From the IMG/VR virus record IMGVR_UViG_3300029214_000148: a stretch of 64,000 bases of DNA, one strand, 5' to 3'. Numbering within the stretch: position 1 is the first letter of the stretch; the number at the start of each line of letters is the position of its first letter. The DNA is from a virus. Positions 3,687-59,413 of this stretch are shown one piece after another. The translations under genes and the position numbers were made by a program. The notes under the pieces were generated by a model. The model did no database searches. It saw only the letters and a program-made list of their open reading frames with translations, and was not told the origin of the DNA.

Positions 3687-4195
3687 TTCCTGTATATATT
3701 TTACCCGTGATGGCCGTGATCTTTTTTACTGCCGGTGGCATGACTGCACGAAAAAGGAAAAAGGAGCTGGAAATTCCGGATAAAAGAAAGAAAATATCCT
3801 GCATTCTGTTCCTTTTATTCCTTATTTTCACCGTGCTGTCCATCGTGATCCTCCCGATAGAAGGACAGTTTTACGGGGAACCAGTAAAGATACTCTCAAC
3901 CACACTGGACAAAAATGACGTTATGGTTCTTTACGACCAGCCGGCAGATACGAAAAACCTTTCCCTTGCAAAAGATGACACCTTTCTGACGGATGCACAG
4001 TCAACGGAACGCATCCGGTATAAGGATGTCTTATACAACACAAACACAGTTAAAAGAAAAGATGTTTTTTCGGTAACAAAAAGCGAAGATGTAGGGCAGA
4101 ACAATATTTTTATTTCACAATGTATAGTAAAGGAAAAAGTATTATGCTTTTGGAAAGTTTCCGCATGCTATCGGATAACTGTTTCGGAAGATTAA
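3680..4195 (+). CDS. hypothetical membrane protein
   Basis: 171 aa; two hydrophobic helices; start overlaps PBP stop. Confidence 0.4.
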   Translation: MVIPVYILPVMAVIFFTAGGMTARKRKKELEIPDKRKKISCILFLLFLIFTVLSIVILPIEGQFYGEPVKILSTTLDKNDVMVLYDQPADTKNLSLAKDDTFLTDAQSTERIRYKDVLYNTNTVKRKDVFSVTKSEDVGQNNIFISQCIVKEKVLCFWKVSACYRITVSED

Positions 4196-4211
4196 GAAAG
4201 AAGGTGAGGTA

Positions 4212-4388
4212 ATGTTGGATGTAATTGCATCAAGCGGAATATATGCATATCTGATCATTGCTCTTTTGTGTATTCTGATCGTAAGATACGCTCTTCCACG
4301 TATCGCAAGGATTCCCTTCAAGATGATCCGGTTTATCCTGATTGTGGGAGCTATTGTTTTTGCAGCTTACCTGTATGTATCAAACTAG
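4212..4388 (+). CDS. small two-helix membrane protein (58 aa)
   Basis: ATG 8 nt after GAAAGGTGAGG; [24 protein letters not shown]...; not in ORF track because under 60 aa. Confidence 0.4.
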
Positions 4389-6288: not shown

Positions 6289-8760
6289 ATGAAAATCATT
6301 ATTGCAGAAAAACCATCTGTTGGACGCACCTATGCGCAGGTGCTCGGCGTCCATAACAAGGAAGATGGTTACATGGAAAGTGATGAATGGATCGTCACAT
6401 GGTCGGTCGGACACCTTGTAACTTTGTGTTACCCGGAGGATTATGACCCGGAACTGAAACACTGGTCTATGGATACGCTTCCATTTTTACCGGAAACATA
6501 CCATTACCGAGTCATCGATGATGTCCGGAAACAGTTTGAAATCATAAAGAAGCTGTACCACCGGGATGACATCTCGGCGATCTATTACGCAGGAGATTCT
6601 GGACGTGAAGGTTTATACATCCAGATGCTCATAAGGGCACAGGCGGGCACAAAAGCAGGAATCGAGGAAAAAGTGGTATGGATTGATACGCAGACGGACG
6701 AAGAAGTCCTTCGCGGCATTCGGGAAGCAAAGCCTCTTTCCACGAAATTCTATCAGGATCTTATGCAGGCCGGATACATGCGTGCGATTGCAGACTCCGC
6801 AATCGGTATCAATTTTTCAAGAGCATTAACCATTAAATACGGGAACATGTTCCGTTCAAAGTCAAAAACAGACACAAAAGGAGCGATCCGGGCAGGAAGG
6901 GTAATGTCAGCCGTTCTTGGCATGATTGTTGAAAAGGAACGTGCAATCAAGAATTTCAAAGCGGTGCCATATTACAAGATTTCGAACAAAGTGACTGTCC
7001 CTGGCGGAACAATCACCGGCAACTGGAAAATTACCGATGACTCCAAGTATAAGGATTCCCCTCTTTTATATGAGGAAAAGGGGTTCCGGGAGGAAACCGA
7101 CGCGAGAAAAATGATCTCCGGACTGTCATCCCAGGTAACCGTAAAGACTTTTTCCAAAAAACCGGTAAAAAAGAACGCACCATTGCTGTTTAACCTTGCA
7201 GAGCTCCAGTCAGAATGCTCCAAATTATTCAAAATTGGTCCGGATAAGACACTGGAAATAGCACAGAGCCTCTACGAGAAGAAGCTCACCACGTATCCAA
7301 GAACAGACGCGAGAGTGCTGACTACGGCTATGGCAGGAGAAGTTGACAAGAACATCAAGGGGCTGACCGGATACAGCACGGTCTCATTCTTTGCATCAGC
7401 TATTCTGGACAATCACTGGTATAAGGGTATTGTAAAGACCAAATACATTGATGACTCAAAAGTAACCGATCACTACGCCATTATTCCAACTGGCGACACC
7501 AGCGCGTTAAGCAGTCTGAAAACAGAGGAAGCGGACGTTTACGAACTGATTGTAAAGCGATTCCTGAGTATTTTTTACCCGCCGGCTGTCTACGAGCAGG
7601 TATCCATCGAGATGATTGCCGGAACAGAACATTTTTTCACATCCGACAAGGTGCTCTCAGAAAAAGGCTTCTATGAAGTTGCCGGAATTCCAAAAGCGGA
7701 TAAGGAAGGGAAAGACTTTTCCATTTACGAGGGTATTGTATCCGGTTCTTCTTATGACAGTGCATACGGTATTGATAAAGGGACGACCTCCCCGCCAAGT
7801 AGATACACCTCCGGCTCCATTATCCTTGCTATGGAAAACGCGGGGAACCTGCTGGAAGATGAGGAACTGCGTGCGCAGATTAAAGGATGTGGCATCGGAA
7901 CATCTGCCACAAGAGGCGAGATCTACAAGAAGCTTCTGGCAATCAAGTACATCCAGACAGACAAGAAAACACAGGTCTTAACACCAACAGAAGACGGTTG
8001 CATCATCTACGACATCATGAAGGACGCACTTCCGGAGTTATTATCGCCGAAGATGACCGCCGAATGGGAACAGGGGTTATCCGAGATTGAGAATGGCATG
8101 GCCTCCAGAGAGGATTACCAGAACCAGATCAACGAATTTGTGAGAGAAAAGATCCAGCTGATCAAAGAAAAGAATAACGGGGAGAATTACAAAGGGGAAT
8201 CCACCGCGGTGGAAACAAATTTCAAGTGCCCGCTGTGCGGAGGAAAGATTCTCTTCCATAAAAAATATGGTTACAAATGCGAAAAACACATCAAAAAAGA
8301 TGAAGGCTGCAGTTTCCGTATTGGACCGATTCTTGGAATTCTGATTGGAGACAGGGATCTGAATGATTTACTCGAAAAAGGAGTCACAAGACAGATTAAA
8401 GGCTGGTTATCAAAGAGTGGAAAGAAATTTGACGCTGCCCTCCGGATAAAAGTAGACAAGCTGGAGAACAAAATGGAACTCTCCTTTGATTTTGATGCAG
8501 GAAGAGATAAGATCATCTGCCCGAAGTGCGGCGGAGAAGTACGGGAAGGACCAAAAGGATATTTCTGTTCCAACTACAAAAACGGATGTCAGTTGAATGG
8601 TTTATGGAAAAATGCCTGCTGGGTAAACATTACTGCTAAAGACGTCAAACAGCTTCTCGCAGGAAAGACTATTGAAAAAGCTGCAAAGGCGAAGAGCGGG
8701 GAAAGTTACAAAAAAAAGCTTATCTATGATATCAAAAAAGGTGAAATCCACGAAGTTTAA
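6289..8760 (+). CDS. topB: DNA topoisomerase III with C-terminal zinc ribbons
   Basis: 823 aa. Toprim start MKIIIAEKPSVGRTYAQVLG. Type IA core. C-terminal C4 ribbons CPLCGGK...CEKH and CPKCGGEV. Confidence 0.85.
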   Translation: MKIIIAEKPSVGRTYAQVLGVHNKEDGYMESDEWIVTWSVGHLVTLCYPEDYDPELKHWSMDTLPFLPETYHYRVIDDVRKQFEIIKKLYHRDDISAIYYAGDSGREGLYIQMLIRAQAGTKAGIEEKVVWIDTQTDEEVLRGIREAKPLSTKFYQDLMQAGYMRAIADSAIGINFSRALTIKYGNMFRSKSKTDTKGAIRAGRVMSAVLGMIVEKERAIKNFKAVPYYKISNKVTVPGGTITGNWKITDDSKYKDSPLLYEEKGFREETDARKMISGLSSQVTVKTFSKKPVKKNAPLLFNLAELQSECSKLFKIGPDKTLEIAQSLYEKKLTTYPRTDARVLTTAMAGEVDKNIKGLTGYSTVSFFASAILDNHWYKGIVKTKYIDDSKVTDHYAIIPTGDTSALSSLKTEEADVYELIVKRFLSIFYPPAVYEQVSIEMIAGTEHFFTSDKVLSEKGFYEVAGIPKADKEGKDFSIYEGIVSGSSYDSAYGIDKGTTSPPSRYTSGSIILAMENAGNLLEDEELRAQIKGCGIGTSATRGEIYKKLLAIKYIQTDKKTQVLTPTEDGCIIYDIMKDALPELLSPKMTAEWEQGLSEIENGMASREDYQNQINEFVREKIQLIKEKNNGENYKGESTAVETNFKCPLCGGKILFHKKYGYKCEKHIKKDEGCSFRIGPILGILIGDRDLNDLLEKGVTRQIKGWLSKSGKKFDAALRIKVDKLENKMELSFDFDAGRDKIICPKCGGEVREGPKGYFCSNYKNGCQLNGLWKNACWVNITAKDVKQLLAGKTIEKAAKAKSGESYKKKLIYDIKKGEIHEV

Positions 8761-14302: not shown

Positions 14303-16705
14303 ATGACAGATAAGAAAAAAATAGAATCAACAAAACATCCCACCAAAATACCAAAAGATGTGCTCACCACCATTCCTTTTACAAGAGTGTACGATGACAC
14401 AAATACAGATGGTGGTATCATTGAAATTTCCAATGGATTGTACTCAAAATCCTATTATCTTGATGACACAAGTTTCTCTGACCTCGGAGATGAGGAACAG
14501 GACGATATCTTAAAATCATTCGAAAGGATCCTGAATACATTTAACCACCTGTATTCATATGAAATTACGGTCAACATTCGTAATATCGACAAAAGCAAAT
14601 TTAATGAAACGATCCTTATGCAGTATAAGAAAGATGAACTGGATGACCTGCGTGCGGAGCATAACGAGATCATTCTGGATAAGATGCAGGAAGGTAAAAA
14701 CAATTTAAAGGCGGAGAAGTATATTACCATTTCCGTAGAAGGAGAAAACATCAAAGATGCGCTTGAATTATTCGCTTCCATCGAGAAAGAAATCAATGTG
14801 AAATTCAAACACATTAACAATACCGGCATGCGTGCAATTTCACTGAAGGACCGGATGAAAATTCTCCATAACATCTACAACCTCGAGAACGAAGATTCCT
14901 TTAATCAGGATTTTAACCCGCGTTCCTTACAGAAACAGGGTATGAGCATAAAAACAGCGATTGCACCAATGTCCTTTGACTTCAAATCCAAAAACATGGA
15001 TTTCTTCAAGATTGGCGGCATTTACGGACGTTCCATGATTCTCCGCTCTATTCCTGCTAATATCAGCGGAAACCTGATCGAGACACTTTCCTCCGTATCC
15101 ACCAATATGCTTCTTTCCGTCCATTATGATGCACAGGAGCAGGAGAAAGCAGTCGCGTTTGCCTCTCATCAGGTAACTTCTGTCGGCGGTGATGTTATCA
15201 AACAGCAGACATCCCTTTCCAGAAGTGGTGCATCCCCGGACATGATTTCCCCGAAACTGCGTACTGCCCAGCTGGATGCGCAGGAAATGTTGGATGACCT
15301 GACAAACCGCAACCAGAAACTTTTCAAGGTTACCGTTGTTGCAACCGTGTTTGCAACCAATGAGAAAGACCTTGATATGTTCACGGAACAGATCAAGACA
15401 AAAGCAAAGGAAAATGTGTGTTCCATAGGTATCTTATATACCACGCAGGAACAGGGTTTTAACAGTTCCCTCCCACTGGCTAAAAACTATCTGGATGACA
15501 CCTATCTGGTAATGACCAGCGAGACAGCTTCTGCCGTCCAGCCATTTTCAACGGTCGAACTGCAGTCCAAGGGCGGTTTTTATTACGGACTGAACACCTT
15601 GTCCAAAAACCTTATTATTTACAACCGTTCCATTGGAATCAACCAGAATGGTTTTATCCTCGGTTCCCCTGGTACTGGTAAGTCATTCACTGCAAAAATA
15701 GAAATGTATCAGACTTATCTTAATACGGACAATACACAGATCTTTGTCCTTGATCCAGAGCAGGAGTACACGGTGCTTGCCAACCGTCTCGGCGGACAGG
15801 TATTCTCTATTGAACCGGGTGGCACAACTCACTTAAACCCACTCGATCTCGACATCACAAAAGATTCCGATGGCGATCCTCTCGCCCAGAAAGTAGACTA
15901 TATCATCTGTATCATTGAGCGTATGCTTGGTGGTAAATCGGAGCTTTCCGGATACGCAAAATCTTTCATTGATGCAACGTTACAGGATTTATACCGTCCG
16001 TATATCGCAGATCTGGAAAGCAGGGGGGTTACGATTGATACAGATACCTGTCCGACATTAAAAGATCTGTACGATATGCTCAGTAAGCACAAGAAACCGG
16101 AAGCCAGAAACCTTGCGGCGTCCATCCGTACATATTGTGATGGTACACTGGATCTGTTCGCACACCACACAAACATTGATGTAAACGCCAAAATGGTAAC
16201 CTATGATACCAGCCATATCGGTACCAACTTAAAGGAATTGGGAATGCAGATCTGTCTGAACGATATCTGGAACCGTATGATTGCAAACAAGAAAAAAAAG
16301 ATTCGTACCTATTTCTACATTGATGAGGCTCATTTATTCCTGCGTATGCCATCGTCCGCAGAATATATCGCAATGGTATGGAAACGTGCAAGGAAATGGA
16401 TGGGGACCCCTACCTTTATTACCCAGAACGTAGAAGATATGTTACGGTCCGCAGAAGGAAACACAATTCTTTCTACATCCGATTTCGCCGTTATGCTGTC
16501 TCAGTCACCGCTTGACCGTGCAGCATTATCAGAATTGTTTCATATCAGCCCGGAACAGCAGGAATTCTTTACGCATACCGGTTGCGGTGAGGGACTTATT
16601 TATACAGCAAAAGCAATCGTGCCATTTGAAAACCATTTCCCGGAAAACACAGAACTGTACAAGATTCTGTCCACAAAGCCGGCAGATGCAGAAGCACTTG
16701 CTTAA
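14303..16705 (+). CDS. VirB4-family conjugative transfer ATPase (PrgJ/TcpF-like)
   Basis: 800 aa; Walker A GSPGTGKSF; Walker B YFYIDEAHLFL; size and N-terminal region typical of VirB4/CagE. Confidence 0.85.
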   Translation: MTDKKKIESTKHPTKIPKDVLTTIPFTRVYDDTNTDGGIIEISNGLYSKSYYLDDTSFSDLGDEEQDDILKSFERILNTFNHLYSYEITVNIRNIDKSKFNETILMQYKKDELDDLRAEHNEIILDKMQEGKNNLKAEKYITISVEGENIKDALELFASIEKEINVKFKHINNTGMRAISLKDRMKILHNIYNLENEDSFNQDFNPRSLQKQGMSIKTAIAPMSFDFKSKNMDFFKIGGIYGRSMILRSIPANISGNLIETLSSVSTNMLLSVHYDAQEQEKAVAFASHQVTSVGGDVIKQQTSLSRSGASPDMISPKLRTAQLDAQEMLDDLTNRNQKLFKVTVVATVFATNEKDLDMFTEQIKTKAKENVCSIGILYTTQEQGFNSSLPLAKNYLDDTYLVMTSETASAVQPFSTVELQSKGGFYYGLNTLSKNLIIYNRSIGINQNGFILGSPGTGKSFTAKIEMYQTYLNTDNTQIFVLDPEQEYTVLANRLGGQVFSIEPGGTTHLNPLDLDITKDSDGDPLAQKVDYIICIIERMLGGKSELSGYAKSFIDATLQDLYRPYIADLESRGVTIDTDTCPTLKDLYDMLSKHKKPEARNLAASIRTYCDGTLDLFAHHTNIDVNAKMVTYDTSHIGTNLKELGMQICLNDIWNRMIANKKKKIRTYFYIDEAHLFLRMPSSAEYIAMVWKRARKWMGTPTFITQNVEDMLRSAEGNTILSTSDFAVMLSQSPLDRAALSELFHISPEQQEFFTHTGCGEGLIYTAKAIVPFENHFPENTELYKILSTKPADAEALA

Positions 16706-34457: not shown

Positions 34458-34509
34458 GAAAGAAGCCGGGGAATCCCGACTTTTCTGCTGCATTGTGTGT
34501 ATATTTTAA

Positions 34510-34582
34510 CGCCGCCTGCGGGATTCGAACCCGCGGATAAAGAGTTCAAAGCTCCCTGCGTTAACCTTTTCGCCAAGGCGGA
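34510..34582 (-). tRNA. tRNA-Gln (anticodon TTG)
   Basis: Manual fold. T-arm GCGGG-TTCGAAT-CCCGC; anticodon loop CTTTGAA; D-arm GCGA/ACGC. Position 1:72 is a U-C mismatch. No encoded CCA. Confidence 0.55.
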
Positions 34583-34583
34583 G

Positions 34584-34651
34584 CACACCCGGAAGGACTC
34601 GAACCCTCGTTACCGGTTTTGGAGACCAGTTTCTGTCCATCAGACAGGTGC
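34584..34651 (-). tRNA. tRNA-Trp-like (anticodon CCA) with truncated D-arm
   Basis: Anticodon stem-loop CTGGT-CTCCAAA-ACCGG and T-arm fold well; only 68 nt; D-arm TCTG-ATGGA-CAGA is abnormally short. Confidence 0.35.
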
Positions 34652-34655
34652 ATAA

Positions 34656-34726
34656 CAGGCGATAATGGAATCGAACCATTGTTTTCTGAGTCAGAATCAG
34701 ATGTCTTACCATTGAACGAATCGCCC
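34656..34726 (-). tRNA. tRNA-Gln (anticodon CTG)
   Basis: Anticodon stem TCTGA/TCAGA perfect; loop TTCTGAC; 4-nt variable loop; acceptor GGGCGAT/ATCGCCT. Confidence 0.55.
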
Positions 34727-34728
34727 AG

Positions 34729-34802
34729 TATCCCCAAAGGGACTCGAACCCTTAACCGACAGATTAGAAATCTGTTGCTCTTTCCAATTGAGCTATGGGG
34801 GT
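34729..34802 (-). tRNA. tRNA-Arg (anticodon TCT)
   Basis: Anticodon stem ACAGA/TCTGT; loop TTTCTAA; D-arm GCTC-AATTGGAAA-GAGC; one acceptor mismatch. Confidence 0.6.
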
Positions 34803-34808
34803 ATATAG

Positions 34809-34898
34809 CGCAGACACCGGGGATCGAACCCGGACAGCGGGTGTGCCGCATGCCACATTAGCAGTGTGGAGGGGTACCATTTACCTTTATATGTCTGC
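34809..34898 (-). tRNA. tRNA-Ser (anticodon GCT), class II
   Basis: Anticodon stem CCACA-CTGCTAA-TGTGG; long variable arm GCGG-CACA-CCGC; acceptor GCAGACA/TGTCTGC. Confidence 0.6.
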
Positions 34899-34903
34899 AT
34901 AAG

Positions 34904-34975
34904 AGGCATCGGAGGGGATCGAACCCTCGCCTTCCGGGTTGCAGCCGGACGCCTTCGCCGTTTGGCTACGATGCC
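34904..34975 (-). tRNA. tRNA-Cys (anticodon GCA)
   Basis: Acceptor GGCATCG/CGATGCC perfect; anticodon stem TCCGG/CCGGA; loop CTGCAAC. Confidence 0.65.
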
Positions 34976-35005
34976 ATATAATTCTTCCCGATAAGAGAAG
35001 ATGAG

Positions 35006-35089
35006 CGCTGTGGCAGGGAGTCGAACCCTGATATCCTTTCGGAATGACGGTTTTCAGGACCGTTGCTTTACCAGTTGAGCCACCACAGC
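35006..35089 (-). tRNA. tRNA-Ser-like (anticodon TGA), class II, with C at position 33
   Basis: Acceptor GCTGTGG/CCACAGC; anticodon stem ACGGT/ACCGT; loop CCTGAAA; variable arm TCC-GAAA-GGA. Confidence 0.5.
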
Positions 35090-35197
35090 AAAAATAAAAG
35101 CATACACCTCTCAATCGAAAGATGTATGCTTTGTAATTCCAGGTATTTCCAATATTCTCCCGGAAATTTTCCTACAATGACCACATTTCTTTCAATT

Positions 35198-35278
35198 TGA
35201 GACAATATTTATTTGCACGACAACTACGCCAGATACATGACTGCGACTGACTCATACTTGCCTGTGAATATTGTCTCA
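35198..35278. repeat. 12-bp inverted repeat pair (TGAGACAATATT ... AATATTGTCTCA) separated by 57 bp, inside the tRNA cluster gap
   Basis: read directly; lies between the two tRNA sub-clusters. Confidence 0.5.
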
Positions 35279-35334
35279 TTACTGCTGTAATCATTGATTT
35301 TCCCTTCCTTTCCTTGGTTTTCTTGAATATTTAG

Positions 35335-35408
35335 TGTGTCTGGTGGGACTTGAACCCGACGACCCCACGATTAAAAGTCGCGTGCTCTGCCAACTGAGCT
35401 ACAGACAC
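35335..35408 (-). tRNA. tRNA-Lys (anticodon TTT)
   Basis: Acceptor GTGTCTG/CAGACAC perfect; D-arm GCTC-AGTTGGCA-GAGC; anticodon loop CTTTTAA; weak T-stem. Confidence 0.6.
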
Positions 35409-35413
35409 ATAAG

Positions 35414-35485
35414 CGGATCAGGAGGGAATCGAACCCTCATCTTCCGGTAGACAGCCGGATGTACTAGCCGCTATACTACAGATCC
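35414..35485 (-). tRNA. tRNA-Asp (anticodon GTC) with U at position 37
   Basis: Anticodon stem TCCGG/CCGGA; loop CTGTCTA; D-arm GTAT-AGCGGCTA-GTAC. Confidence 0.55.
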
Positions 35486-35489
35486 ATAA

Positions 35490-35562
35490 AGCTCCCGTCC
35501 GGCTTCGAACCGGAAACCTTCTGATTACAAGTCAGATGCACTACCAGTTGTGCTACAGGAGC
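35490..35562 (-). tRNA. tRNA-Thr (anticodon TGT)
   Basis: Acceptor GCTCCTG/CGGGAGC; D-arm GCAC-AACTGGTA-GTGC; anticodon stem TCTGA/TCAGA. Confidence 0.65.
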
Positions 35563-35646
35563 AGGAACACTTCCGACGGGTGCTGCCCCGCTATCTCCGC
35601 CGTGACAGGGCGGTGACTCTGTTGTTTGTCCTCGGAAGTAAATAAG

Positions 35647-35728
35647 TGCGCCGGGGAGGACTCGAACCTCCGGTGTTTCTTTGTGGCTGATTTACAGTCA
35701 GCTGCTGTCGCCTCTGAGCCACCGACGC
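35647..35728 (-). tRNA. tRNA-Tyr (anticodon GTA), class II
   Basis: Acceptor GCGTCGG/CCGGCGC; anticodon stem GCTGA-CTGTAAA-TCAGC; long variable arm. Confidence 0.6.
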
Positions 35729-35733
35729 ATAAG

Positions 35734-35806
35734 CTGGTCCGGAGGGTCTCGAACCCTCAACGCCCCGGTTAACAGCCGGGTGCTCTACCATTGAGCTACG
35801 GATCAG
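35734..35806 (-). tRNA. tRNA-Asn (anticodon GTT)
   Basis: Anticodon stem CCCGG/CCGGG; loop CTGTTAA; D-arm GCTC-AATGGTA-GAGC. Confidence 0.6.
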
Positions 35807-35878
35807 AGCATGTGACGGGTCTCGAACCCGCCCGTCCTGCTTGGAAGGCAGGTGTGCCGCCAACAACACTTCACATGC
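35807..35878 (-). tRNA. tRNA-Gly (anticodon TCC)
   Basis: Acceptor GCATGTG/CACATGC perfect; anticodon stem CCTGC/GCAGG; loop CTTCCAA; A at position 8. Confidence 0.6.
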
Positions 35879-36431
35879 ATGCGGATAAAAGAAGTGCCTG
35901 TTTTCTCTTATCCATTCAGTTTTTTACCGCATCGCTGCGGAGTGGACAGGAGTGGTAACGATCCACCCTGTAAGGATTTTCAGTCCTTCGCTAATCCATC
36001 TCAGCTACCTGTCCATGGCTTTTTCTGCAATAAAAAAGCCGCATCAAGAAATTTCCTCTTCTCTCTGCGGTCATCTGCGTTTTGCAATATTTCGGTTTTA
36101 AGTGCCTGGTTTAAAATCGAAATCGACCGCGGGAAGGTGTATCATAATAGTTCTGTCCCCATGTTTTCCCGGATTTTGAGCATGAGAAACTAAACATATT
36201 GCTGAAATCGCCGTATGTTCTACAATCATTATTAAAATTTTTACTACTCATCATCTTTAACATGGTTTTCTTTTCCTTTCATTTTAATTAATGCTGGATA
36301 AACAAAAAGCCCGTCACTTAACTCAAAGCTACACATCCAAATAGCTCTGAGTTAAAAGACAGGCACTTCTTTTATCTCATGCACCTATCATATCATACTG
36401 ATCGTGAAGTGTCAACAGGAAATTTAAAAAA

Positions 36432-41013: not shown

Positions 41014-41232
41014 GTTGCGCCCCATTGGGTGCATGGGTTGAAATCTTTATGACCTTCTGAAAAGTGAGGGCATCTTAGTTGCACCCCCGCAAGGGATGTA
41101 TGGGTTGAAATTCAATAGAAACAGATGCATTCGAAGGCGTTACAAGTTGCACCCCGCGAGGGGTGTATGGGTTGAAATTGCAGAAAGCTCAGGATTGGAA
41201 GGTTGCATCCTATGGGATGCATGGATTGAAAC
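41014..41232 (+). CRISPR. small array, 4 degenerate repeats + 3 spacers
   Basis: repeats at 41014, 41078, 41146, 41202; spacer 2 (TCAATAGAAACAGATGCATTCGAAGGCGTTACAA) matches spacer 2 at 24044 with 2 mismatches. Confidence 0.7.
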
Positions 41233-41271
41233 GAACATATTTGTTATTATTTATTATTGAGATCAGAAAGG

Positions 41272-41718: not shown

Positions 41719-42393
41719 ATGGAAAAAGAAAAAATGGGAGTGAAACTAAAAGTCTGGGGAGATTACGCATTGTTCACCAGACCAGAACTGAAAACTGAAC
41801 GGTATACATACGATGTGATGACACCGTCGGCGGCTAGAGGAATTCTGGAATCTATCTACTGGCATCCGGGACTTCGGTGGTATGTAGACAAGATTCATGT
41901 ATTAAATCCGATTGCCACTACGAGCGTGAGAAGAAATGAACTTCTCAGTAAGATACCAAAGTCAAATATGCTGCAGGCATACAACGGCGGGGATGTGAAA
42001 CTGTATAACTCGTCAAGAGACGATATTATCCAGAGGGCATCTGTTATTCTCCGGGATGTCTGCTATGTGATTGAGGCGCATTTTGAAATGACAGGGAAAG
42101 CGAGCCCAACAGACAGCCCGGCAAAGTTTATAAGTATCTTTAACAACAGGGCAAGAAAAGGGGCATGTTATTCGATGCCGTATTTTGGTGTAAGGGAATT
42201 CCCGGCACACTTTGAACTCTGCGAAGGAGATGAAAAGATCCCATCCTACTATGAAGGACTTTCGGATAAGGATCTCGGGCTGATGCTTTATGATCTGGAT
42301 TACTCCTGCGGTAGAGATATCCAGCCAATGTATTATCATGCGATTATGAAAAACGGCGTTATTGACGTTGGGAACAGTGAGGTGCTTCGATGA
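41719..42393 (+). CDS. cas5: Cas5c (Cas5d), type I-C
   Basis: KLKVWGDYALFTRPELKTERYTYDVMTPSAARGILESIYWHP matches the Cas5d N-terminal signature. Confidence 0.85.
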   Translation: MEKEKMGVKLKVWGDYALFTRPELKTERYTYDVMTPSAARGILESIYWHPGLRWYVDKIHVLNPIATTSVRRNELLSKIPKSNMLQAYNGGDVKLYNSSRDDIIQRASVILRDVCYVIEAHFEMTGKASPTDSPAKFISIFNNRARKGACYSMPYFGVREFPAHFELCEGDEKIPSYYEGLSDKDLGLMLYDLDYSCGRDIQPMYYHAIMKNGVIDVGNSEVLR

Positions 42394-44129
42394 TCTTTCA
42401 GTCACTTGTGAAATTATATGAAACACTTGCGGATCAGGGAAAAGTGTCCCGTCCTGGCTGGTGTAATGCAAAGGTATCCTATGCGGTGGTTTTAAACCAT
42501 GATGGGACGATTAAAGATATTGTTTCCGTGAAACAGAAAGTGAAGAGAGGAAAGAAGACTGTTGAAATTCCAATAATTATGCAGGTTCCAGAGATGGTCA
42601 CCCGCGCTAACAACATTGCCTCCAGCTTTCTCTGCGAAAATGCAAAGTATCTCTTTGGAATTGACGAAAAGATGAGTTTGCGTACACTGGAATGTTTTAA
42701 GGCGGCAAAGAAAAAACATCTTGATATTCTTGATGTTGTGGATTCACCTGTAGCACAGACGGTATGTAACTTTTTCCGTTCATGGGATCCGGAACAGGCG
42801 TTGGATCAACCGGCTGTTGCAAAACTTGCAGAAGAGTTTTATAAAGGCGGAAACCTCGTTTTTGAAGTAGATGGGGAATATGTGCATGATGATGAAGAAG
42901 TCCGCAGGGCATGGATGGATTACAGCAGTGTACCATATGAAATGGTAACTGGAAGATGCCTTATTACTGGAGAGGAAGCGGAGATTGCCCGCACGCACGG
43001 GAAAATCAAAGGAGTTCCGGGAGCACAGTCATCTGGCGCGTCGCTTGTATCATTTAACGGAGCATCCCTTGAGTCTTATGAAAAAACACAGAGCTACAAC
43101 GCGCCGATTAGCACCTATGCGGCGTATGCATATGTGACCGCGCTGAATTACTTGCTTTCTACGGACGGGTATCACAGCAAGGTAGGAGATTCCATGGTGG
43201 TTTTCTGGACAGATTCCGGGGATGTGGATGATGTGAGCAGACTGCGGAAGATGATGGGAAATATCAATGAAAAGGATCACACCCTTACAGATACGGATGA
43301 AAAACTGTACGTCCTCTGCCTTGCACCAAATGCCGGGCGAATTGCAGTCCGGTTCTTCTATGAGGATGCGATCGGGGCAATCTGGGAAAACCTGTCCGAA
43401 CATGCCAGCCGGATGAAGATTGTAAAACCAGTATTTGAGGATCAAGAATTTATCAATATCTGGCAGATGCTCATGGAGACAGTCAACCAGAATCTTACAG
43501 ATAAAACACCTGTCCCGCATATGTCAGCAATGACGTTACAGTCAGTCATTTCGGATACACCGTATCCGCAGAGTCTGTATGCAGGTGTGTTATCTCGTAT
43601 CCGCGCGGAGCACAAAGGTGTTACTTACAGAAAAGCATCGATTATTAAAGCTTTTTTAATAAAGAACTACAAATGGGAGGAAGGAAAAAATATGGAAGCA
43701 TTAAATGAAGGCTGTAAGGATCGGGCATATATCCTTGGAAGACTGTTTGCGGTTATGGAAAAGGCACAGAAAGAAGCAGTTGGCAATATCAACCAGACAA
43801 TTTGTGATAAGTTTTACAATTCCGCGTGCACAACACCAAGATCGATCTTTCCAGTACTGATCAGGCTATCTAACAGTCATTTAAGTAAGTTGAAACGGAC
43901 AAAACCGGGGAGAGGATATTATTTTACAGCTAAAATGCAGGATTTAATGGATAAAATTCCGGTAACAGATGATGATCCGGGATTTCCGCGGCGTTTCTCA
44001 TATGAGGATCAGGGTAAGTTTGCACTTGGTTATTATCATCAGATGCGGGCGGAATATACAAGCAGTAAGTTAAAAGATAATGATTCAGAAGGTGATCAGA
44101 CAAATGCAGAGAATATGGAGGAAAACTAA
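42390..44129 (+). CDS. cas8c: Cas8c (Csd1), type I-C large subunit
   Basis: 579 aa between cas5c and cas7c; N-terminus MIFQSLVKLYETL typical of Csd1. Confidence 0.7.
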   Translation: MIFQSLVKLYETLADQGKVSRPGWCNAKVSYAVVLNHDGTIKDIVSVKQKVKRGKKTVEIPIIMQVPEMVTRANNIASSFLCENAKYLFGIDEKMSLRTLECFKAAKKKHLDILDVVDSPVAQTVCNFFRSWDPEQALDQPAVAKLAEEFYKGGNLVFEVDGEYVHDDEEVRRAWMDYSSVPYEMVTGRCLITGEEAEIARTHGKIKGVPGAQSSGASLVSFNGASLESYEKTQSYNAPISTYAAYAYVTALNYLLSTDGYHSKVGDSMVVFWTDSGDVDDVSRLRKMMGNINEKDHTLTDTDEKLYVLCLAPNAGRIAVRFFYEDAIGAIWENLSEHASRMKIVKPVFEDQEFINIWQMLMETVNQNLTDKTPVPHMSAMTLQSVISDTPYPQSLYAGVLSRIRAEHKGVTYRKASIIKAFLIKNYKWEEGKNMEALNEGCKDRAYILGRLFAVMEKAQKEAVGNINQTICDKFYNSACTTPRSIFPVLIRLSNSHLSKLKRTKPGRGYYFTAKMQDLMDKIPVTDDDPGFPRRFSYEDQGKFALGYYHQMRAEYTSSKLKDNDSEGDQTNAENMEEN

Positions 44130-44130
44130 G

Positions 44131-45042
44131 ATGAGCACACCAATTAAGAACAGATATGATTTCGTAGTATTATTCGACGTAGAGAATGGAAATCCGAACG
44201 GTGATCCGGATGCCGGAAATATGCCGAGAGTTGATCCAGAGACTGGCATCGGGCTTGTGACAGATGCCTGCATAAAGCGCAAGATCCGTAACTATGTGGA
44301 AACTGTAAAAGAAGATGCAGCCGGGTTCAAGATCTATATTAAAGAGGGGGTCCCGCTGAACCGGAGTGACCTTAAGGCAGTCGAAAGTCTTGGTATTGAC
44401 GTCGGTGACGACAAAAATGCACTTGAAGATGTAAAGAAGCTGAAAAAGACAGATGAAGATGTGGATCTTAAGCTCCGTGACTATATGTGTAGTAATTTCT
44501 ATGATATCCGTACATTTGGTGCTGTCTTGACTACCTTTACAAAGGCGGCATTAAACTGTGGGCAGGTACGTGGCCCGGTACAGATTGGTTTTGCAAAAAG
44601 TATTGATCCTGTTTTCAGCCAGGATATTACTGTAACCAGAGTTGCAATCACAACGGAAAAGGATGCGGAAAAGAAAAATACAGAAATGGGAAGAAAGAGT
44701 ATTATTCCTTATGGACTTTACCGTGTGGAGGGATATATTTCTGCTAATCTTGCCCGTAAGACCACCGGCTTTTCTGAAGACGATCTGGAACTGCTTTGGG
44801 AAGCAATCATTAACATGTTTGAGAATGACCATTCCGCAGCACGCGGGAAGATGGCAGTGCGTGAGCTCATCGTATTCAAGCATAACAGCGAGCTTGGCAA
44901 TTGTCCATCGTACAAACTGTTTGAAACTGTTGATGTTAAGAAGAATGATGGTGTTGAGTTTCCTCGTAAATATTCCGATTATGCAGTGACTATTCATGAG
45001 GATGCGATTCCGGATGGCGTGACAATGACTCGCAAAATCTAA
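44131..45042 (+). CDS. cas7: Cas7c (Csd2), type I-C
   Basis: VLFDVENGNPNGDPDAGNMPRVDPETGIGLVTDACIKRKIRNY is the Csd2 signature; start ATG after TGGAGGAAAACTAAG. Confidence 0.85.
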   Translation: MSTPIKNRYDFVVLFDVENGNPNGDPDAGNMPRVDPETGIGLVTDACIKRKIRNYVETVKEDAAGFKIYIKEGVPLNRSDLKAVESLGIDVGDDKNALEDVKKLKKTDEDVDLKLRDYMCSNFYDIRTFGAVLTTFTKAALNCGQVRGPVQIGFAKSIDPVFSQDITVTRVAITTEKDAEKKNTEMGRKSIIPYGLYRVEGYISANLARKTTGFSEDDLELLWEAIINMFENDHSAARGKMAVRELIVFKHNSELGNCPSYKLFETVDVKKNDGVEFPRKYSDYAVTIHEDAIPDGVTMTRKI

Positions 45043-45292: not shown

Positions 45293-46069
45293 GCTACGCC
45301 CCATGGAGGGCGTATGGATTGAAAATTGTATAGCCATCCCTGACAGCTTCCTCATTAGACGCTACGCCCCATGGAGGGCGTATGGATTGAAAATCTATAC
45401 TCTATTATGTGATGTACTAATGTCGCTGCTACGCCCCATGGAGGGCGTATGGATTGAAAATGATTGTTATTGGTTTTTATTCATGGAGAGGAAAGCTACG
45501 CCCCATGGAGGGGCGTATGGATTGAAAAGTAAGGTTTCGTCTCGAAGCCTTTATTCTGTTTTGCTGCGCCCCATGGAGGGGCGTATGGATTGAAATACCA
45601 AAATCTTTTGACATTCTTATAAATGGTAACAGCTACGTCTTATGGGGTACGTATGGATTGAAATCATAATAATTGTAGAGATCTCAATACAAAATAAAGC
45701 TGCGTCTCATGGAATACGTATGGATTGAAATGAAAAGGCGAGTTTGCGAAAGCAGATATTGGAATGTTGCGTCTCGTGGAGTACGTATGGATTGAAATTC
45801 CAACTTTAACTACATAACTATCCTGATAAACTTGCTGCACCCCATGGATAGTGTATGGATTGAAATTTAAAAAATCATGGATAACATCTGCGATAAGACG
45901 TTGCACCTCGCTAGGGGTGTATGGGTTGAAATTTCCATAATCGGTAGCCAATTATTATCATTAGGTGTTGCACCCCATAGAGGGTGTATGGATTGAAATT
46001 ATATAAAAATGATGAATATGTAAAAAAAATAAAAGAGTTACGCTCCATGGAGTGCGTATGGCTTGAAAC
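45293..46069 (+). CRISPR. type I-C-like array, 12 repeats in three repeat subfamilies, 11 spacers
   Basis: Repeats every 66-70 nt. Subfamily 1: GCTACGCCCCATGGAGGGCGTATGGATTGAAAAT (R1-R5). Subfamily 2: GCTGCGTCTCATGGAATACGTATGGATTGAAAT (R6-R8). Subfamily 3: GTTGCACCCCATAGAGGGTGTATGGATTGAAAT (R9-R11). R12 is degenerate. 3-prime handle GTATGGATTGAAAT conserved throughout. Confidence 0.8.
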
Positions 46070-46139
46070 CTCTTATTTTTTAAAAGATATCACGATTACA
46101 CCCAAAGTGGGCTTACGTAAATTTAAAGGAGAAAAGTAC

Positions 46140-52773: not shown

Positions 52774-52788
52774 TTTCTTGCGGAGCAG

Positions 52789-52861
52789 AGCAGAGGAAGG
52801 CTCACCGGGCTCATGACCTGGGTGTCGGATGTTCGATTCCTTTCTCCGCAATTAATTTTAA
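52789..52861 (+). tRNA. tRNA (anticodon CAT; Met or Ile2) on the plus strand
   Basis: Acceptor TGCGGAG/CTCCGCA perfect; D-arm GAGC/GCTC; anticodon stem CCGGG/CCTGG; loop CTCATGA; weak T-stem GGATG/CCTTT; C at position 8. Confidence 0.5.
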
Positions 52862-54366: not shown

Positions 54367-54533
54367 GTGGGATGTTTTACCCGACTGACGGAAACGAATA
54401 CGAGATCAATATTCCATCTCCAGTGATACATGACTCTAAAGAAGAAGCTATGGCTGATGGAAACTTTGGTTACCGCTTTATACAGATAGATAGATCGGTT
54501 GGACCGGTAATCGTTATATTTGAAAGTCAATAA
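54363..54533 (+). CDS. small hypothetical protein, ATGA-coupled
   Basis: 56 aa; start overlaps the upstream stop. Confidence 0.3.
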   Translation: MSGMFYPTDGNEYEINIPSPVIHDSKEEAMADGNFGYRFIQIDRSVGPVIVIFESQ

Positions 54534-54845
54534 CCCATCACTAAAGTGACGGGCTTGTGTTTCAGCCACTACACAGTGGATATGCAGGCCCGATATTGAC
54601 TAGCCTAAGTGCTTCGGGCACTACGTTAAGAGAGAATACATAGTTACCTGCGGATGTAATGCCTAGTCTGCAGCAATAAGGGGACGTATTAAACAGTTTC
54701 ATTGGGGTGGAACAGTGTGCGGCAGATAAAGATGTACCTTTATCTCTTATCCATATAAACCTCTCTTAACATTGGCGAAGGCATTTTAACCACACTTCGG
54801 TGTGAGTACTTAAATCCGAAAGGATTTCAGAAAGGAGCATGACCT
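54534..54845 (+). ncRNA. putative IscB omega RNA (OMEGA guide RNA scaffold)
   Basis: 312-nt GC-rich noncoding tract directly abutting the iscB start, with multiple hairpins; position matches the known upstream omega-RNA arrangement of IscB loci. Confidence 0.5.
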
Positions 54846-56102
54846 ATGGTTTATGTGTTATCAAAAACCGGACAGCCTTTGATGCCGACAGAGAACCATG
54901 CAAAGGTCCGTGTTCTGTTAAAACAGCAAAAGGCAAAAATAGTACACGGCTGTCCGTTTACCATACAGTTGCTGTATGACAGTACAGACTATACACAGCC
55001 GGTAAGTCTTGGCATTGATGCCGGAAGCAGGCATATCGGCGTATCTGCCACTACGGAAACGAAAGTCCTGTACGAAGCAGATGTGACACTCAGAAACGAC
55101 ATCGTGGATCTTTTATCTACACGCCGGGAAGCACGGCGCACCAGAAGAAGCCGAAAGACTCGCTACCGCAAGCCGCGGTTCAATAACAGAACCCGCAAGG
55201 ACGGCTGGCTGGCTCCGTCCATACAGCAGAAGGTGGATACGCACCTTACTACGGTGCGCAAGGTAACGGAGATACTTCCAGTAAACAGCATCACGGTGGA
55301 AACTGCATCATTCGATATCCAGAAGATCAAGAACCCGGACATAGCCGGTACTGGCTATCAGCAGGGCGAACAGCTCGACTTCTGGAACGTACGTGAGTAT
55401 GTACTCTTCCGTGACGGCCATAAGTGCCAGTGCTGTAAAGGGAAGTCAAAAGATCCAGTGCTTAACGTGCATCATATCGAAAGCCGTAAGACCGGAGGAA
55501 ACGCACCGAATAACCTGATCACACTCTGCGAAACATGTCACAAGGGCTATCATAACGGTACCGTAAGCCTGCCGAAAAACATCAGGCGCGGCATGAAATT
55601 TAACGATGCTGCATTTATGGGTATCATGCGGTGGGCCTTTTTCAACAGGGTAAAGGAGACCTACGAGCCGCTTGGCATCATGGTAAAAATGACATATGGC
55701 TATATCACAAAAAATACAAGGATAGAGCACGACCTGCCGAAGGACCACTTCATCGATGCCAGATGTATCAGCGGGCACCCGGATGCAACAAGTGACGGTA
55801 CAGTCTTTTATCAAAAGAAAGTGCGCTGTCATAACCGCCAGATCCATAAACAGAAGATATTAAAAGGCGGTATCCGCAAACGGAACCAGGCCCCGTACCT
55901 GGTGAAAGGATTCCGGCTGTTTGAAAAAGTCAAATACCACGGGAAACAGTATTTTATCTTTGGCAGAAGGAGCAGCGGTTTTTTCGACATAAGGACTTTA
56001 GATGGCACCAAAGTAAATAAAGGCAGTGTAAGCTGTAAAAAGATCAGATCTTTGGACATGCCACGTAGCTATTTAACAGAAGAAAGAAAGGCAATAGTTT
56101 AG
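54846..56102 (+). CDS. iscB: IscB RNA-guided nuclease (PLMP domain, split RuvC with HNH insert)
   Basis: PLMP motif LSKTGQPLMPT; RuvC-I LGIDAGSRHIGVS; Arg-rich bridge helix RREARRTRRSRKTRYRKPRF; HNH CQCC...HHIESRKTGGNAPNNLITLCETCH; RuvC-III HFIDA. Confidence 0.8.
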   Translation: MVYVLSKTGQPLMPTENHAKVRVLLKQQKAKIVHGCPFTIQLLYDSTDYTQPVSLGIDAGSRHIGVSATTETKVLYEADVTLRNDIVDLLSTRREARRTRRSRKTRYRKPRFNNRTRKDGWLAPSIQQKVDTHLTTVRKVTEILPVNSITVETASFDIQKIKNPDIAGTGYQQGEQLDFWNVREYVLFRDGHKCQCCKGKSKDPVLNVHHIESRKTGGNAPNNLITLCETCHKGYHNGTVSLPKNIRRGMKFNDAAFMGIMRWAFFNRVKETYEPLGIMVKMTYGYITKNTRIEHDLPKDHFIDARCISGHPDATSDGTVFYQKKVRCHNRQIHKQKILKGGIRKRNQAPYLVKGFRLFEKVKYHGKQYFIFGRRSSGFFDIRTLDGTKVNKGSVSCKKIRSLDMPRSYLTEERKAIV

Positions 56103-56168
56103 CCTATAGTGTGTTCCTCTCATGACTAAAGTCACGAGTGTACGCACTTGGCTTACTAAAGGTATTTT

Positions 56169-56411
56169 ATGAAAATTGGTGAATTAAAGAGAAATAAGGA
56201 AGAAACAGAAGGAAAAATTCCTTCATTCGTCATCGGAGAGGTGGACAGTGACGCAGAAGCTGCGGAAATCATTGCAAATCTTGATGCCCACCGTCCAGAC
56301 TATCCGATGACTCTTGCAAAGAAGGGCGGCGGGATGTCGTTTGCGGAGAAATATCGGATAATGCGGGAAGAAATCGGGAAAATATCAGAAACAGGAGGGG
56401 AAAGCAGATGA
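56169..56411 (+). CDS. hypothetical protein
   Basis: 80 aa acidic. Confidence 0.4.
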   Translation: MKIGELKRNKEETEGKIPSFVIGEVDSDAEAAEIIANLDAHRPDYPMTLAKKGGGMSFAEKYRIMREEIGKISETGGESR

Positions 56412-56849: not shown

Positions 56850-57590
56850 ATGTTGGAAAAATACAGTTATGAATTGTGGAATGGAAATTGTCTGGAATTA
56901 ATGAAATCTATTCCTGATAAATCAATAGATATGATTTTATGTGATCTGCCATATGGGACAACTAAGTGCAAATGGGATATCGTAATACCATTTAAACCAA
57001 TGTGGGATCAATATAGTCGTATTGCAAAAGATAATGCCGCAATCGTATTGTTTGGACAGGAGCCATTTTCTTCTTTATTAAGGGTAAGCAATATCAGCGA
57101 TTACAAGTATGATATTTACTGGGAAAAAGAGCGGTTAACAAATATTAATCAGGTTAAACGGAGAGTTGGGAAAACTGTAGAGACAATATCTGTATTTTAT
57201 AAAAAACAATGTACATATAATCCTCAAATGGTTAAGCATGAAGGAAAACTAAGGAAAAACAGGGTAAAAAATGGTAAACTCGGAAAACTTACAGATGAAA
57301 ATGAAAAAAAAGTAATTGAGTATAATGATACTGGGTGGCGTTACCCTACGCAAGTTTGGAAATTTCAAAGAGATTGTCTGACTTCAAATTTGCATCCAAC
57401 CCAAAAACCATTGCTTTTATGTGAGACACTTGTCAAAACATTTTCCAATGAAGGCGATATTGTCCTGGATAATTGTATGGGATCTGGAACGGTTGGTGTA
57501 GCATGCAAACTTTTAAACCGTAAATTTATTGGTATAGAACTTGAAGAGAACTATTTCAAAATTGCAAAGGAAAGGATTGACCATAATTGA
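56850..57590 (+). CDS. beta-class DNA methyltransferase (N4-cytosine or N6-adenine)
   Basis: motif IV DLPYGT precedes motif I NCMGSGTVGV (beta order); no adjacent endonuclease. Confidence 0.65.
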   Translation: MLEKYSYELWNGNCLELMKSIPDKSIDMILCDLPYGTTKCKWDIVIPFKPMWDQYSRIAKDNAAIVLFGQEPFSSLLRVSNISDYKYDIYWEKERLTNINQVKRRVGKTVETISVFYKKQCTYNPQMVKHEGKLRKNRVKNGKLGKLTDENEKKVIEYNDTGWRYPTQVWKFQRDCLTSNLHPTQKPLLLCETLVKTFSNEGDIVLDNCMGSGTVGVACKLLNRKFIGIELEENYFKIAKERIDHN

Positions 57591-59413
57591 GAAAAGGACA
57601 GATTAAATTACTGGAAAAAGCAGAAAAAGAAGGATTTACAGAAGAACAGCTGGCTGTATTGCGTGGCAATCAGATGTTATGCACTTTAGATTATTATTAC
57701 TTTTTGCTGAAGCGTGGTGTTTCTGCTTCTGTAATTAATGCAATCATCAAAGCTGGTGAAGGATGGGGAATGGATTCGTTTGGATTCCAGTTGATGGAAT
57801 GTGGTTATTCATTGGAGGATATCCTTACATATATTGAGAAAAGCAAAAAGCTGTTACTTAATCATAATTATTTTTACGAAGAGATCATGACAGGGAAAAG
57901 TAAAAATGAAACTGATGTGTCTTTGCGTAAAAGCTATGCAGAAATACTTATACAGATTCCCGAATTATTGAGTTGCCGTGATGCATATATTACAAAGGCT
58001 GTCGAATTTGCAATCAATTCACGAATTTCAGTGAAAGATTTTATTGAGGAATTTTTCCCAAAGGAAGAGGATAGCTGGAAGGTCTTTAGAAACGGAAATT
58101 ATAAAGATAGCCAGTATACCGCTTTACTTTCTTTTTGGCGTAACCATATTCCACATTTATCAGACTTGTTATTGCCCAATGACAACAGTTTGTTTTTGTT
58201 TTACGAGCAGAAAGAAGTAGCTTTGGAAGATCAGATGAAACTTTTTATGGAAGCATGGAAAGCCCTTAACCATGTAACAGGGAAAGAACATTTCATTAAA
58301 ATAAAAGACTGCCCCATGTACTACAGGAGTATTGACATTAATAAGTCAGCAGTTAATATTTATCTGGCTTCGTCTTCTTATACAAATATTAACAATGGCG
58401 AATTCCATTTTGATGTATCGGAAGTATCTATGAAACTGGTCATTTTCCATTCCGGTGGATATTACTATAAAGGTTTCAAAGACCGGCTATTTCCGATTTC
58501 CATAAAGAAATTAAGTTCCATATGGAATGATTATGGAAATCTTGGAAAACAGGTGGTTACATTCATCCTTGGACATGCAATGGAAAAATTAAATGCCCTG
58601 GTCATGAAGGATATCCTGCGGACATTTGAAAAAGATAATTTTATGCTGCTTCCAATCAGACTTATCGACTGCCGGGATTCGTATAATTACAATCATCTGC
58701 TTCAGAAGAGGTGGGTTGCTGCGGATAAGATCAACTGGAACAGAACAGACGTCAACCTTGCTTACCTCGTAATTAAAAGTCTTCCGTACCTGGGACGTGA
58801 AAGCGATAAAAAACGATTATTACAGACAAAAGATACATCCCTGCTTGATGTGGTGGATTCTTCCTTCTGGAAGAGGAGATGGAACAACAAATGTATTTCC
58901 ACTTTCCTCGGATGCTTTATTGCAGGCGGTATCAGTGATGTGCCTGAAGATGGCGATCTGGATAATGTCAGAATCACAGCAGATGATTACATAAAAATGG
59001 CACACGAGATGCACCAAAAGGTTAAGCTTGGGTTCCGTAGCTGGAAGAAACTTAAGGATGCGCATGACAAAATATCAAAGAAATACAAAAATCGACTTCA
59101 CCGGGTGCATGTTCCAAAGAACAGCAAGTTCAACCATCTGAGGGAACTGCTCCCGGAATCCTATGAATGGATCCGTACAGGCAGCCGTCTCCGCATGGAA
59201 GGTATTGAGATGGGACACTGTGTGAATTCTTACTGGCAATACATAAACCAGGATACCTGTGCCATATATTCCTTTACAGCAGGAGAAAAACGCTACACTG
59301 CAGAATTCCGTGTTGACAGGAACGGGAAATATACGGTTAAGCAGATCCAGTCAAAGTATGACAGGGGGTGTCCGGCTTCTGTCCGGAAACAGGTGGGTAA
59401 GTTGATTTCCTAA
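57587..59413 (+). CDS. PcfJ-like protein, translationally coupled to the methyltransferase
   Basis: C-terminal RMEGIEMGHCVNSYWQY...KYDRGCP resembles the PcfJ family of conjugative plasmids; TTG start overlapping the upstream stop. Confidence 0.4.
   Translation: MRKGQIKLLEKAEKEGFTEEQLAVLRGNQMLCTLDYYYFLLKRGVSASVINAIIKAGEGWGMDSFGFQLMECGYSLEDILTYIEKSKKLLLNHNYFYEEIMTGKSKNETDVSLRKSYAEILIQIPELLSCRDAYITKAVEFAINSRISVKDFIEEFFPKEEDSWKVFRNGNYKDSQYTALLSFWRNHIPHLSDLLLPNDNSLFLFYEQKEVALEDQMKLFMEAWKALNHVTGKEHFIKIKDCPMYYRSIDINKSAVNIYLASSSYTNINNGEFHFDVSEVSMKLVIFHSGGYYYKGFKDRLFPISIKKLSSIWNDYGNLGKQVVTFILGHAMEKLNALVMKDILRTFEKDNFMLLPIRLIDCRDSYNYNHLLQKRWVAADKINWNRTDVNLAYLVIKSLPYLGRESDKKRLLQTKDTSLLDVVDSSFWKRRWNNKCISTFLGCFIAGGISDVPEDGDLDNVRITADDYIKMAHEMHQKVKLGFRSWKKLKDAHDKISKKYKNRLHRVHVPKNSKFNHLRELLPESYEWIRTGSRLRMEGIEMGHCVNSYWQYINQDTCAIYSFTAGEKRYTAEFRVDRNGKYTVKQIQSKYDRGCPASVRKQVGKLIS

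Follow-up and report, generated by a model that had tools for sequence, protein, structure and literature searches.

A probable non-autonomous IS200/IS605-type element carrying IscB and its omega RNA in a large gut mobile replicon

We analyzed a 64,000-nucleotide stretch of DNA from the IMG/VR virus record IMGVR_UViG_3300029214_000148 (the window), and found that its segment 54526-56168 is most probably a non-autonomous IS200/IS605-type (ISC-type) element that carries an intact IscB protein together with its omega RNA. IscB is an RNA-guided DNA cutter and the ancestor of Cas9. Established directly were the families to which the protein and the RNA belong, the catalytic residues, how the RNA is structured, the hairpins and boundaries of the element, its ATGAA flank and the absence of a TnpA gene in the window, and the steps of guide use, cleavage and spread proposed below are modeled on the characterized relatives GstIscB and OgeuIscB. 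The original prediction had placed an IscB unit at 54530-56160; the unit stands, and its limits needed only a small refinement, with the guide segment falling outside the element (Table 1).

The 418-aa open reading frame (ORF) of iscB is the sole long ORF of the interval examined. Pfam searches assigned its residues 2-174 to RRXRR and its residues 194-237 to HNH. When the PDB was searched with the protein sequence, IscB structures ranked first, with 11hr at 2.5e-48 and OgeuIscB (7utn and 7xht) at 9.1e-47, and TbaIscB, HfmIscB, IsrB and small Cas9s followed at lower ranks. The full series of IscB domains that had been proposed for this protein is present. The PLMP motif corresponds to residues 11-14, and the N-terminus was aligned with OgeuIscB residues 3-115. 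The split RuvC domain contains D58 (GIDAG, RuvC-I), E152 (VETAS, RuvC-II) and H301/D304 (DHFID, RuvC-III), which were aligned with the solved IscBs, and an arginine-rich bridge helix follows RuvC-I at residues 93-115, where RREARRTRRSRKTRYRK comprises residues 93-109. The HNH domain is inserted in RuvC and shows the CX2C...HH...CX2C pattern (C194/C197, H209/H210, N222/N223 and C228/C231). The protein has no REC lobe, and its length is inside the IscB size class of ~400-500 aa. All catalytic motifs are conserved in the alignments with the PDB IscBs, and none of the RuvC and HNH residues D58, E152, H209/H210, H301 and D304 is mutated. Based on these alignments, we identify the predicted protein as an IscB in which all catalytic residues are intact. 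The 19 iscB relatives collected from IMG/VR share 37-74% protein identity, and the nearest bacterial IscB relatives (65-75%) belong to Lachnospiraceae and Erysipelotrichaceae of the gut and rumen. A second small HNH-type ORF was observed elsewhere in the window among the 99 ORFs scanned (HNH_5, 1.3e-07; NinG, 1.5e-04).

A noncoding tract of 312 nt (54534-54845) lies between the stop codon of the upstream gene (54531-54533) and the ATG of iscB. It had been proposed to be structured and to encode an omega RNA, and a covariance-model search bore this out. The Rfam family HEARO (RF02033), which is the RNA now called IscB omega RNA (bioRxiv 10.1101/2023.03.14.532601; PMC13565253), matched the + strand at 54526-54790 over its full length (model positions 1-211) with 115.6 bits, where the gathering score is 83 (E 2e-24). 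This is the only HEARO match in the 64-kb window, and it ends 55 nt 5' of the iscB ATG on the same strand. HEARO is located directly upstream of iscB in 19/19 of the IMG/VR relatives as well, ending ~55-60 nt before the start codon. When 21 omega-RNA regions were aligned, compensatory double changes were found at 28 of the 34 pairs of the consensus fold. The ~55 nt between the end of the Rfam model and iscB contain conserved hairpins, whose lack in the model was likewise remarked by Meers et al. (bioRxiv 10.1101/2023.03.14.532601); the first of them (54791-54804) covaries, and the second (54812-54827) is variable in sequence with its pairing kept, as judged by eye. The window RNA has two insertions relative to the HEARO consensus. 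It carries a private hairpin with a 7-bp stem (54724-54745), which is not found in the 20 aligned relatives, and the variable stem at ~54555-54597 is present in a long version. The predicted fold has an energy of -98.9 kcal/mol (z = -3.4), lower than that of 100/100 shuffled sequences. Because the HEARO match exceeds the gathering score and the paired positions covary, the tract upstream of iscB is, as judged by these comparisons, a bona fide omega RNA.

Comparison with a sister lineage (L006/L010) revealed 9 substitutions in the element, and 7/7 of those in the coding region are synonymous. In the noncoding part, a G>A change turns a G:U pair into an A:U pair, and a C>T change is located in the loop of the private hairpin. 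Since every coding change is synonymous and the RNA changes are either compatible with pairing or in a loop, this comparison indicates that both the IscB protein and the omega RNA have probably been under purifying selection.

The guide of an IscB element corresponds to the flanking DNA directly 5' of the scaffold, and its length of 16 nt is assumed here from characterized IscBs. The guide, which the original prediction had placed at the 5' end of the transcript, was located at this inferred position in the flanking DNA, and its sequence ATCGTTATATTTGAAA occurs once in the window at 0 mismatches.

The boundaries of the element were revealed by its relatives. On the left side, the similarity to L033 and L046 starts at 54526 with GTCAATA, and the flanks upstream of it are unrelated. 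On the right side, the similarity to L046 and to a mini-copy on the related human-gut contig L055 ends at 56168 with ...GGTATTTT followed by ATGAA; L046 shares ...CTTGGCTT(A/G)C(T/C)AAA(G/T)GTATT... and the ATGAA with the window, and then diverges. In addition, two IscB-less homologs, L031 (found via the upstream 56-aa gene) and L059 (found via the downstream 80-aa gene), run continuously across the join of 54525 to 56169 (TTGAAAATGA / ATGAGAATGA / TTGATAACGA). The element is lodged between these two genes, and iscB is co-oriented with the upstream one. Its first bases, GTCAATAA, form the last two codons and the stop codon of the 56-aa gene, and the ATG directly 3' of the element (56169) is the start codon of the 80-aa gene. 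The reconstructed unoccupied site (54521-54525 plus 56169-56175) reads T-TGAAAA-TGAAAA-TTGG, a perfect tandem hexamer, and the sites of L031 and L059 are similar. According to our own reading of the alignment, a join without duplication fits L031 almost gap-free, whereas a single-copy TGAAAA join needs a 6-nt gap. A 5-bp TGAAA target duplication was rejected as well, since L031 is in accord with the two-copy (no-duplication) join. L011, which is related to the flanking AAA gene, differs in its downstream context and is uninformative.

Two matching subterminal palindromes had been quoted as flanking the unit, and they are present at 54536-54551 (CATCACTAAAGTGACG) and 56121-56136 (CATGACTAAAGTCACG) with 14/16 identical positions. 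By our own arithmetic, ~0.6 such matches are expected by chance in 2.1 kb, and the repeat alone is not significant. The palindromes belong to a 5' hairpin and a two-tier 3' hairpin, and most relatives contain hairpins at the same two places, one directly behind the start of the scaffold and one behind the stop codon. The 3'-end hairpin of the relatives has an outer stem and is set in a conserved frame, TTCCTCCCA...GGGTTTCC. When RNAalifold was applied to short 3'-end segments, no pairs were predicted, reflecting problems of alignment register, and the matching of each 5' hairpin to its own and to other 3' ends was used instead. The 5' hairpin of the window matched its own 3' hairpin at 12/14 positions and the 3' ends of other elements at no more than 10/14. 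L014, L017, L019, L023 and L046 also had no better partner than their own 3' hairpin, and in elements with distinct hairpin sequences the best or nearly best match of the 5' hairpin was the 3' hairpin of the same element. Because of the common arrangement in relatives and the matching of own ends, and not of the repeat similarity alone, we consider that the two predicted hairpins are real element ends. The element thereby has the IS200/IS605 trait of subterminal imperfect hairpins at both ends without terminal inverted repeats. The HEARO region has been described as delimited by the right end (RE) of the transposon (Meers et al., bioRxiv 10.1101/2023.03.14.532601).

The motif 3' of the element is ATGAA in 14/30 and ATGAC in 12/30 of the relatives (26/30 together), and ATGAA also follows the L055 mini-copy. 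For GstIscB, TTCAT located 5' of the transposon left end (LE) was determined experimentally to be both the TnpA target and the target-adjacent motif (TAM) of IscB (Meers et al., bioRxiv 10.1101/2023.03.14.532601); on the IscB strand this is a 3' ATGAA, in agreement with the sequence that follows the window element. By analogy, ATGAA is the probable TAM of the window IscB. A fixed motif of 4-5 nt beside the insertion, with no duplication of the target site, is a further IS200/IS605 trait of the element. In 17/30 relatives, the flanking ATG is the start of an ORF of 50 aa or more, compared with 30% of random ATGA sites, and therefore elements of this family often sit directly before a start codon. 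The 3' end of the element was also considered as a ribosome-binding site for the downstream gene, since AAAGG-N6-ATG is found in the window, L055, L017 and L047; this was rejected as a family trait, with a Shine-Dalgarno-like run in only 5/30 relatives.

Table 1. Coordinates of the element, its parts and the type I-C features of the window.
Feature	Coordinates	Strand	Remarks
Whole insertion element	54526..56168	+	1,643 bp: omega-RNA scaffold, iscB, 3' terminal structure; boundaries from relatives
Inferred guide segment ATCGTTATATTTGAAA	54510..54525	+	16 nt directly 5' of HEARO model position 1; 3' end of upstream 56-aa gene, outside element
Omega-RNA scaffold	54526..54845	+	HEARO match 54526-54790; further hairpins 54791-54804, 54812-54827; private insertion 54724-54745
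5' subterminal hairpin CCCATCACTAAAGTGACGGG	54534..54553	+	RE on transposase strand; also first omega-RNA hairpin
Shine-Dalgarno-like AAAGGAG	54831..54837	+	8 nt 5' of iscB ATG; block conserved in alignment
iscB	54846..56102	+	418 aa; RRXRR 7.1e-69, HNH 1.3e-07 (Pfam), PDB IscB matches 2.5e-48 to 9e-47
3' subterminal two-tier hairpin AGTGTG / TTCC / TCTCATGAC-TAAA-GTCACGAG / TGTA / CGCACT	56108..56148	+	LE on transposase strand; unique in window
ATGAA, inferred TAM / transposase target site (TTCAT on other strand)	56169..56173	+	ATGAA or ATGAC in 26/30 relatives; GstIscB TAM
CRISPR array, 4 repeats	41018-41233		
Cas5d	41719-42393		type I-C
Csd1/Cas8c	42390-44129		type I-C
Cas7	44080-45042		type I-C
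CRISPR array, 12 repeats	45293-46070		

A mode of action can be proposed for this arrangement. Read-in transcription from the co-oriented upstream genes would produce an RNA that begins with ~16 nt of flanking DNA (54510-54525) and continues into the scaffold. IscB bound to this RNA would cut DNA bearing a match to the 16-nt guide followed by ATGAA, and its target would be the same locus without the element, either the donor joint left after excision by a TnpA acting in trans or a sibling replicon of the same cell whose site is unoccupied. Repair from the occupied copy would then reinstate or spread the element, and the occupied site should be immune because GTCAA, not ATGAA, follows the guide match. 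The predicted donor joint after excision is ...TTTGAAA joined to ATGAAAATT..., that is, TATATTTGAAA joined to ATGAAAATTGG, and the predicted circle junction is ...GGTATTTT joined to GTCAATAACC..., that is, AAAGGTATTTT joined to GTCAATAACCC.

The architecture of an IscB-omega RNA pair in a TnpA-less element has already been described and experimentally dissected (Meers et al., bioRxiv 10.1101/2023.03.14.532601). The GstIscB/ISGst element of Geobacillus stearothermophilus is likewise non-autonomous and of the IS605 type, with a HEARO-type omega RNA upstream of iscB at the RE, and GstIscB elements share the orientation of the upstream gene, as in the window; the residues replaced in its dead mutant (D58A/H209A/H210A) have the same numbers in the window IscB (bioRxiv 10.1101/2023.03.14.532601). 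On the contrary, the host of GstIscB is a Geobacillus chromosome rather than a large gut mobile replicon, and the window differs by the extra hairpin and the long variable stem of its omega RNA and by a single copy of the element with no TnpA partner found in the window. OgeuIscB-omega RNA (PDB 7UTN and 7XHT) has the same domain order and catalytic motifs (E 9e-47) and an omega RNA of the same Rfam family. OgeuIscB is a longer protein, of 496 aa, and the stretches aligned with it are residues 1-111 and 104-332 of the window protein. Its TAM is reported to be NWRRNA, compared with the ATGAA proposed for the window IscB.

With regard to mobility, 99 ORFs of the window (90-260 aa, from both strands) were scanned for the Y1 HUH transposase TnpA (PF01797), and none of them matched, as the proposal of an IS200/IS605-like element lacking TnpA would have it. 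The element is therefore non-autonomous, as are ~98% of iscB elements; tnpA was reported nearby in only ~1.5% of iscB genes (Meers et al., bioRxiv 10.1101/2023.03.14.532601). IscB-element relatives have different flanks at every locus, and two copies of related elements are present in each of three assemblies (Sharpea porci, Lachnospiraceae SUG1701 and uncultured Lachnospiraceae bin.32); the window contains one copy of its element. Contig L055 contains a 221-bp ends-only copy at a second site (4128-4348), which starts with GTCAATAACCC, ends with AAAGGTATTTT, and is made up of ~72 nt from the 5' end, 19 nt from the interior of iscB and ~130 nt from the 3' end. Its insertion site lies between ...GAGGTAGAAAAT, which contains an RBS-like (ribosome-binding-site-like) GAGG, and an ATGAAG start codon, and its empty site was not found. 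Like the ends-only IS200/IS605 derivatives known as palindrome-associated (PATE) or miniature inverted-repeat (MITE) transposable elements, this copy has retained the hairpins of both ends and is flanked by ATGAA; it differs in being located in the related contig and not in the window, and it may have arisen by transposition of a mini-element or by decay in place. As far as can be read from its ends and position, the L055 copy shows past mobility of the element family.

Here, we need to consider several observations that weigh against an intact mobile IscB element. First, an identical IscB occurs on 22 contigs, and it is at the same site in 10/10 of the places shown. Since the identical protein is at the same site in all of these places, this copy shows no sign of recent movement. 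Second, the canonical copy of L055 (8053-8660) is cut by a deletion after ~81 codons and joined to codon ~38 of the 80-aa gene, so that the counterpart of window 55090-56279 is missing; decay of the element does occur in relatives. Third, in the PDB matches listed, the best-scoring stretches stop short of the residues beyond ~354, in the C-terminal ~80 aa that are the presumed TAM-interacting domain. Fourth, a promoter and terminator scan of the upstream region gave no signal above shuffled sequences, and expression of the guide is assumed. Finally, the reconstruction of the empty site depends on two diverged homologs, L031 and L059, and the exact empty site was not found by gapped patterns in IMG/VR and JGI metagenomes, a weak negative given that the occupied junction itself was found only once in the metagenome collection.

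These observations lend themselves to another explanation, in which the element is the same and the copy is now immobile and fixed, its nuclease being kept in the service of the replicon, to cut related competitor replicons that do not have the insertion, by way of transposon non-restorative homing or of competitor killing, or being simply not yet decayed. The invariant site and the absence of TnpA in the window fit this explanation, as does the fact that the replicon hosting it is a large mobile element in its own right, with IscB-less relatives that could be targets, and the concept appears in a 2026 review table (PMC13565253). However, the hairpins at the two ends are intact and have kept their mutual match, the second-site copy of L055 represents movement within the replicon family, and the exact 16-nt target occurs in none of the IscB-less relatives examined (11/16 in L031 by our own count). 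Based on these observations, we regard a fixed copy as possible and rather unlikely.

Some homologs of the 80-aa protein are fused in frame to the N-terminus of a gene product encoded upstream of IscB in the window, namely the AAA protein fused to the 80-aa homolog (P0004 and P0012) and a 134-aa protein fused to it (P0006 and P0010). These alleles represent independent deletions that removed the IscB element (contigs L056, L057/L058 and L060) and kept the C-terminal half of the 80-aa protein, which is conserved; in L057 and L058, which come from two samples, the deletion is the same. Three right breakpoints are located within ~8 nt, at window ~56279-56286 (CTTGATGCCC), and the deletion junction of L057 contains a TGATG microhomology. 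It is conceivable that the main role of the element is RNA-guided homing or exclusion among sibling replicons that share a cell, and that the alleles P0004, P0006, P0010, P0012 and L055 are scars left by escape from cutting by IscB. Mosaicism is seen elsewhere in the replicon family too, which is against reading the alleles as scars, and a clustering of the breakpoints could result from nothing more than selection for the C-terminal half of the 80-aa protein. We consider this possibility improbable.

It has also to be considered that the protein is a free-standing, protein-guided HNH homing endonuclease with an unrelated RNA leader upstream. IscB homologs in phage records (e.g. Clostridium phage c-st) and in PHROGs 119 and 2214 are indeed named 'HNH endonuclease', and GenBank uses this label as well. 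The complete split-RuvC and bridge-helix architecture, which was aligned with solved IscB-omega RNA complexes, the IscB-specific HEARO match and the presence of that RNA with the gene in all viral relatives speak against it, and this reading is effectively refuted.

The window belongs to a large mobile replicon of the gut, which may be a plasmid, an integrative element or a phage-plasmid. It encodes a VirB4/TraG-like ATPase, PrgI, PcfJ, topoisomerase III, a bifunctional penicillin-binding protein (PBP), a helicase and methylases, and a 13-tRNA array is located at 34509-36014 on the - strand. Conjugation-type genes, topoisomerase III and the bifunctional PBP were observed at 999-3686, 6289-8760, 14303-16705 and 57587-59413, with phage-like features alongside, and a separate tRNA-Met (52778-52852, +) lies ~1.7 kb upstream of the IscB element. 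Relatives of the replicon reach at least 163 kb, and no close relative was found in DNA searches of GenBank phages and PLSDB plasmids. Two further structured RNAs were observed on contigs with related IscB genes: viral contig L014 contains a ROOL RNA (303.8 bits) and then a tRNA at 1988-2586, directly upstream of its IscB element, and contig L020 contains a type-P5 twister ribozyme at 6778-6827, ~2.5 kb downstream of its IscB.

The original prediction had described a cas3-less Cascade next to IscB. The Cas5d/Cas8c/Cas7 trio exists (41719-45042), and Cas3, Cas1 and Cas2 were not recognized among the window ORFs scanned; the trio is not adjacent, being ~9.8 kb from the element. That IscB works with this type I-C Cascade and the two CRISPR arrays, located 8.5-13.5 kb upstream, for instance as the missing nuclease, is highly improbable, since IscB comes with a complete guide RNA of its own, related elements are found in unrelated contexts in many bacteria and in viral contigs without Cascade, relatives of the replicon keep the neighborhood without IscB, ~10 genes separate the two, and no evidence for a functional link was found.

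The non-autonomous element at 54526-56168 contributes a further IscB-omega RNA pair, intact and apparently under selection, to a well-characterized family. Its value is mostly that of a catalogue entry, and the compact protein of 418 aa with its probable ATGAA TAM may be a candidate for genome editing. Our understanding of how IscB works is unchanged by this element. It would provide a natural setting for RNA-guided homing between mobile replicons, in which a replicon bearing a type I-C Cascade is accompanied by sibling replicons without the element.

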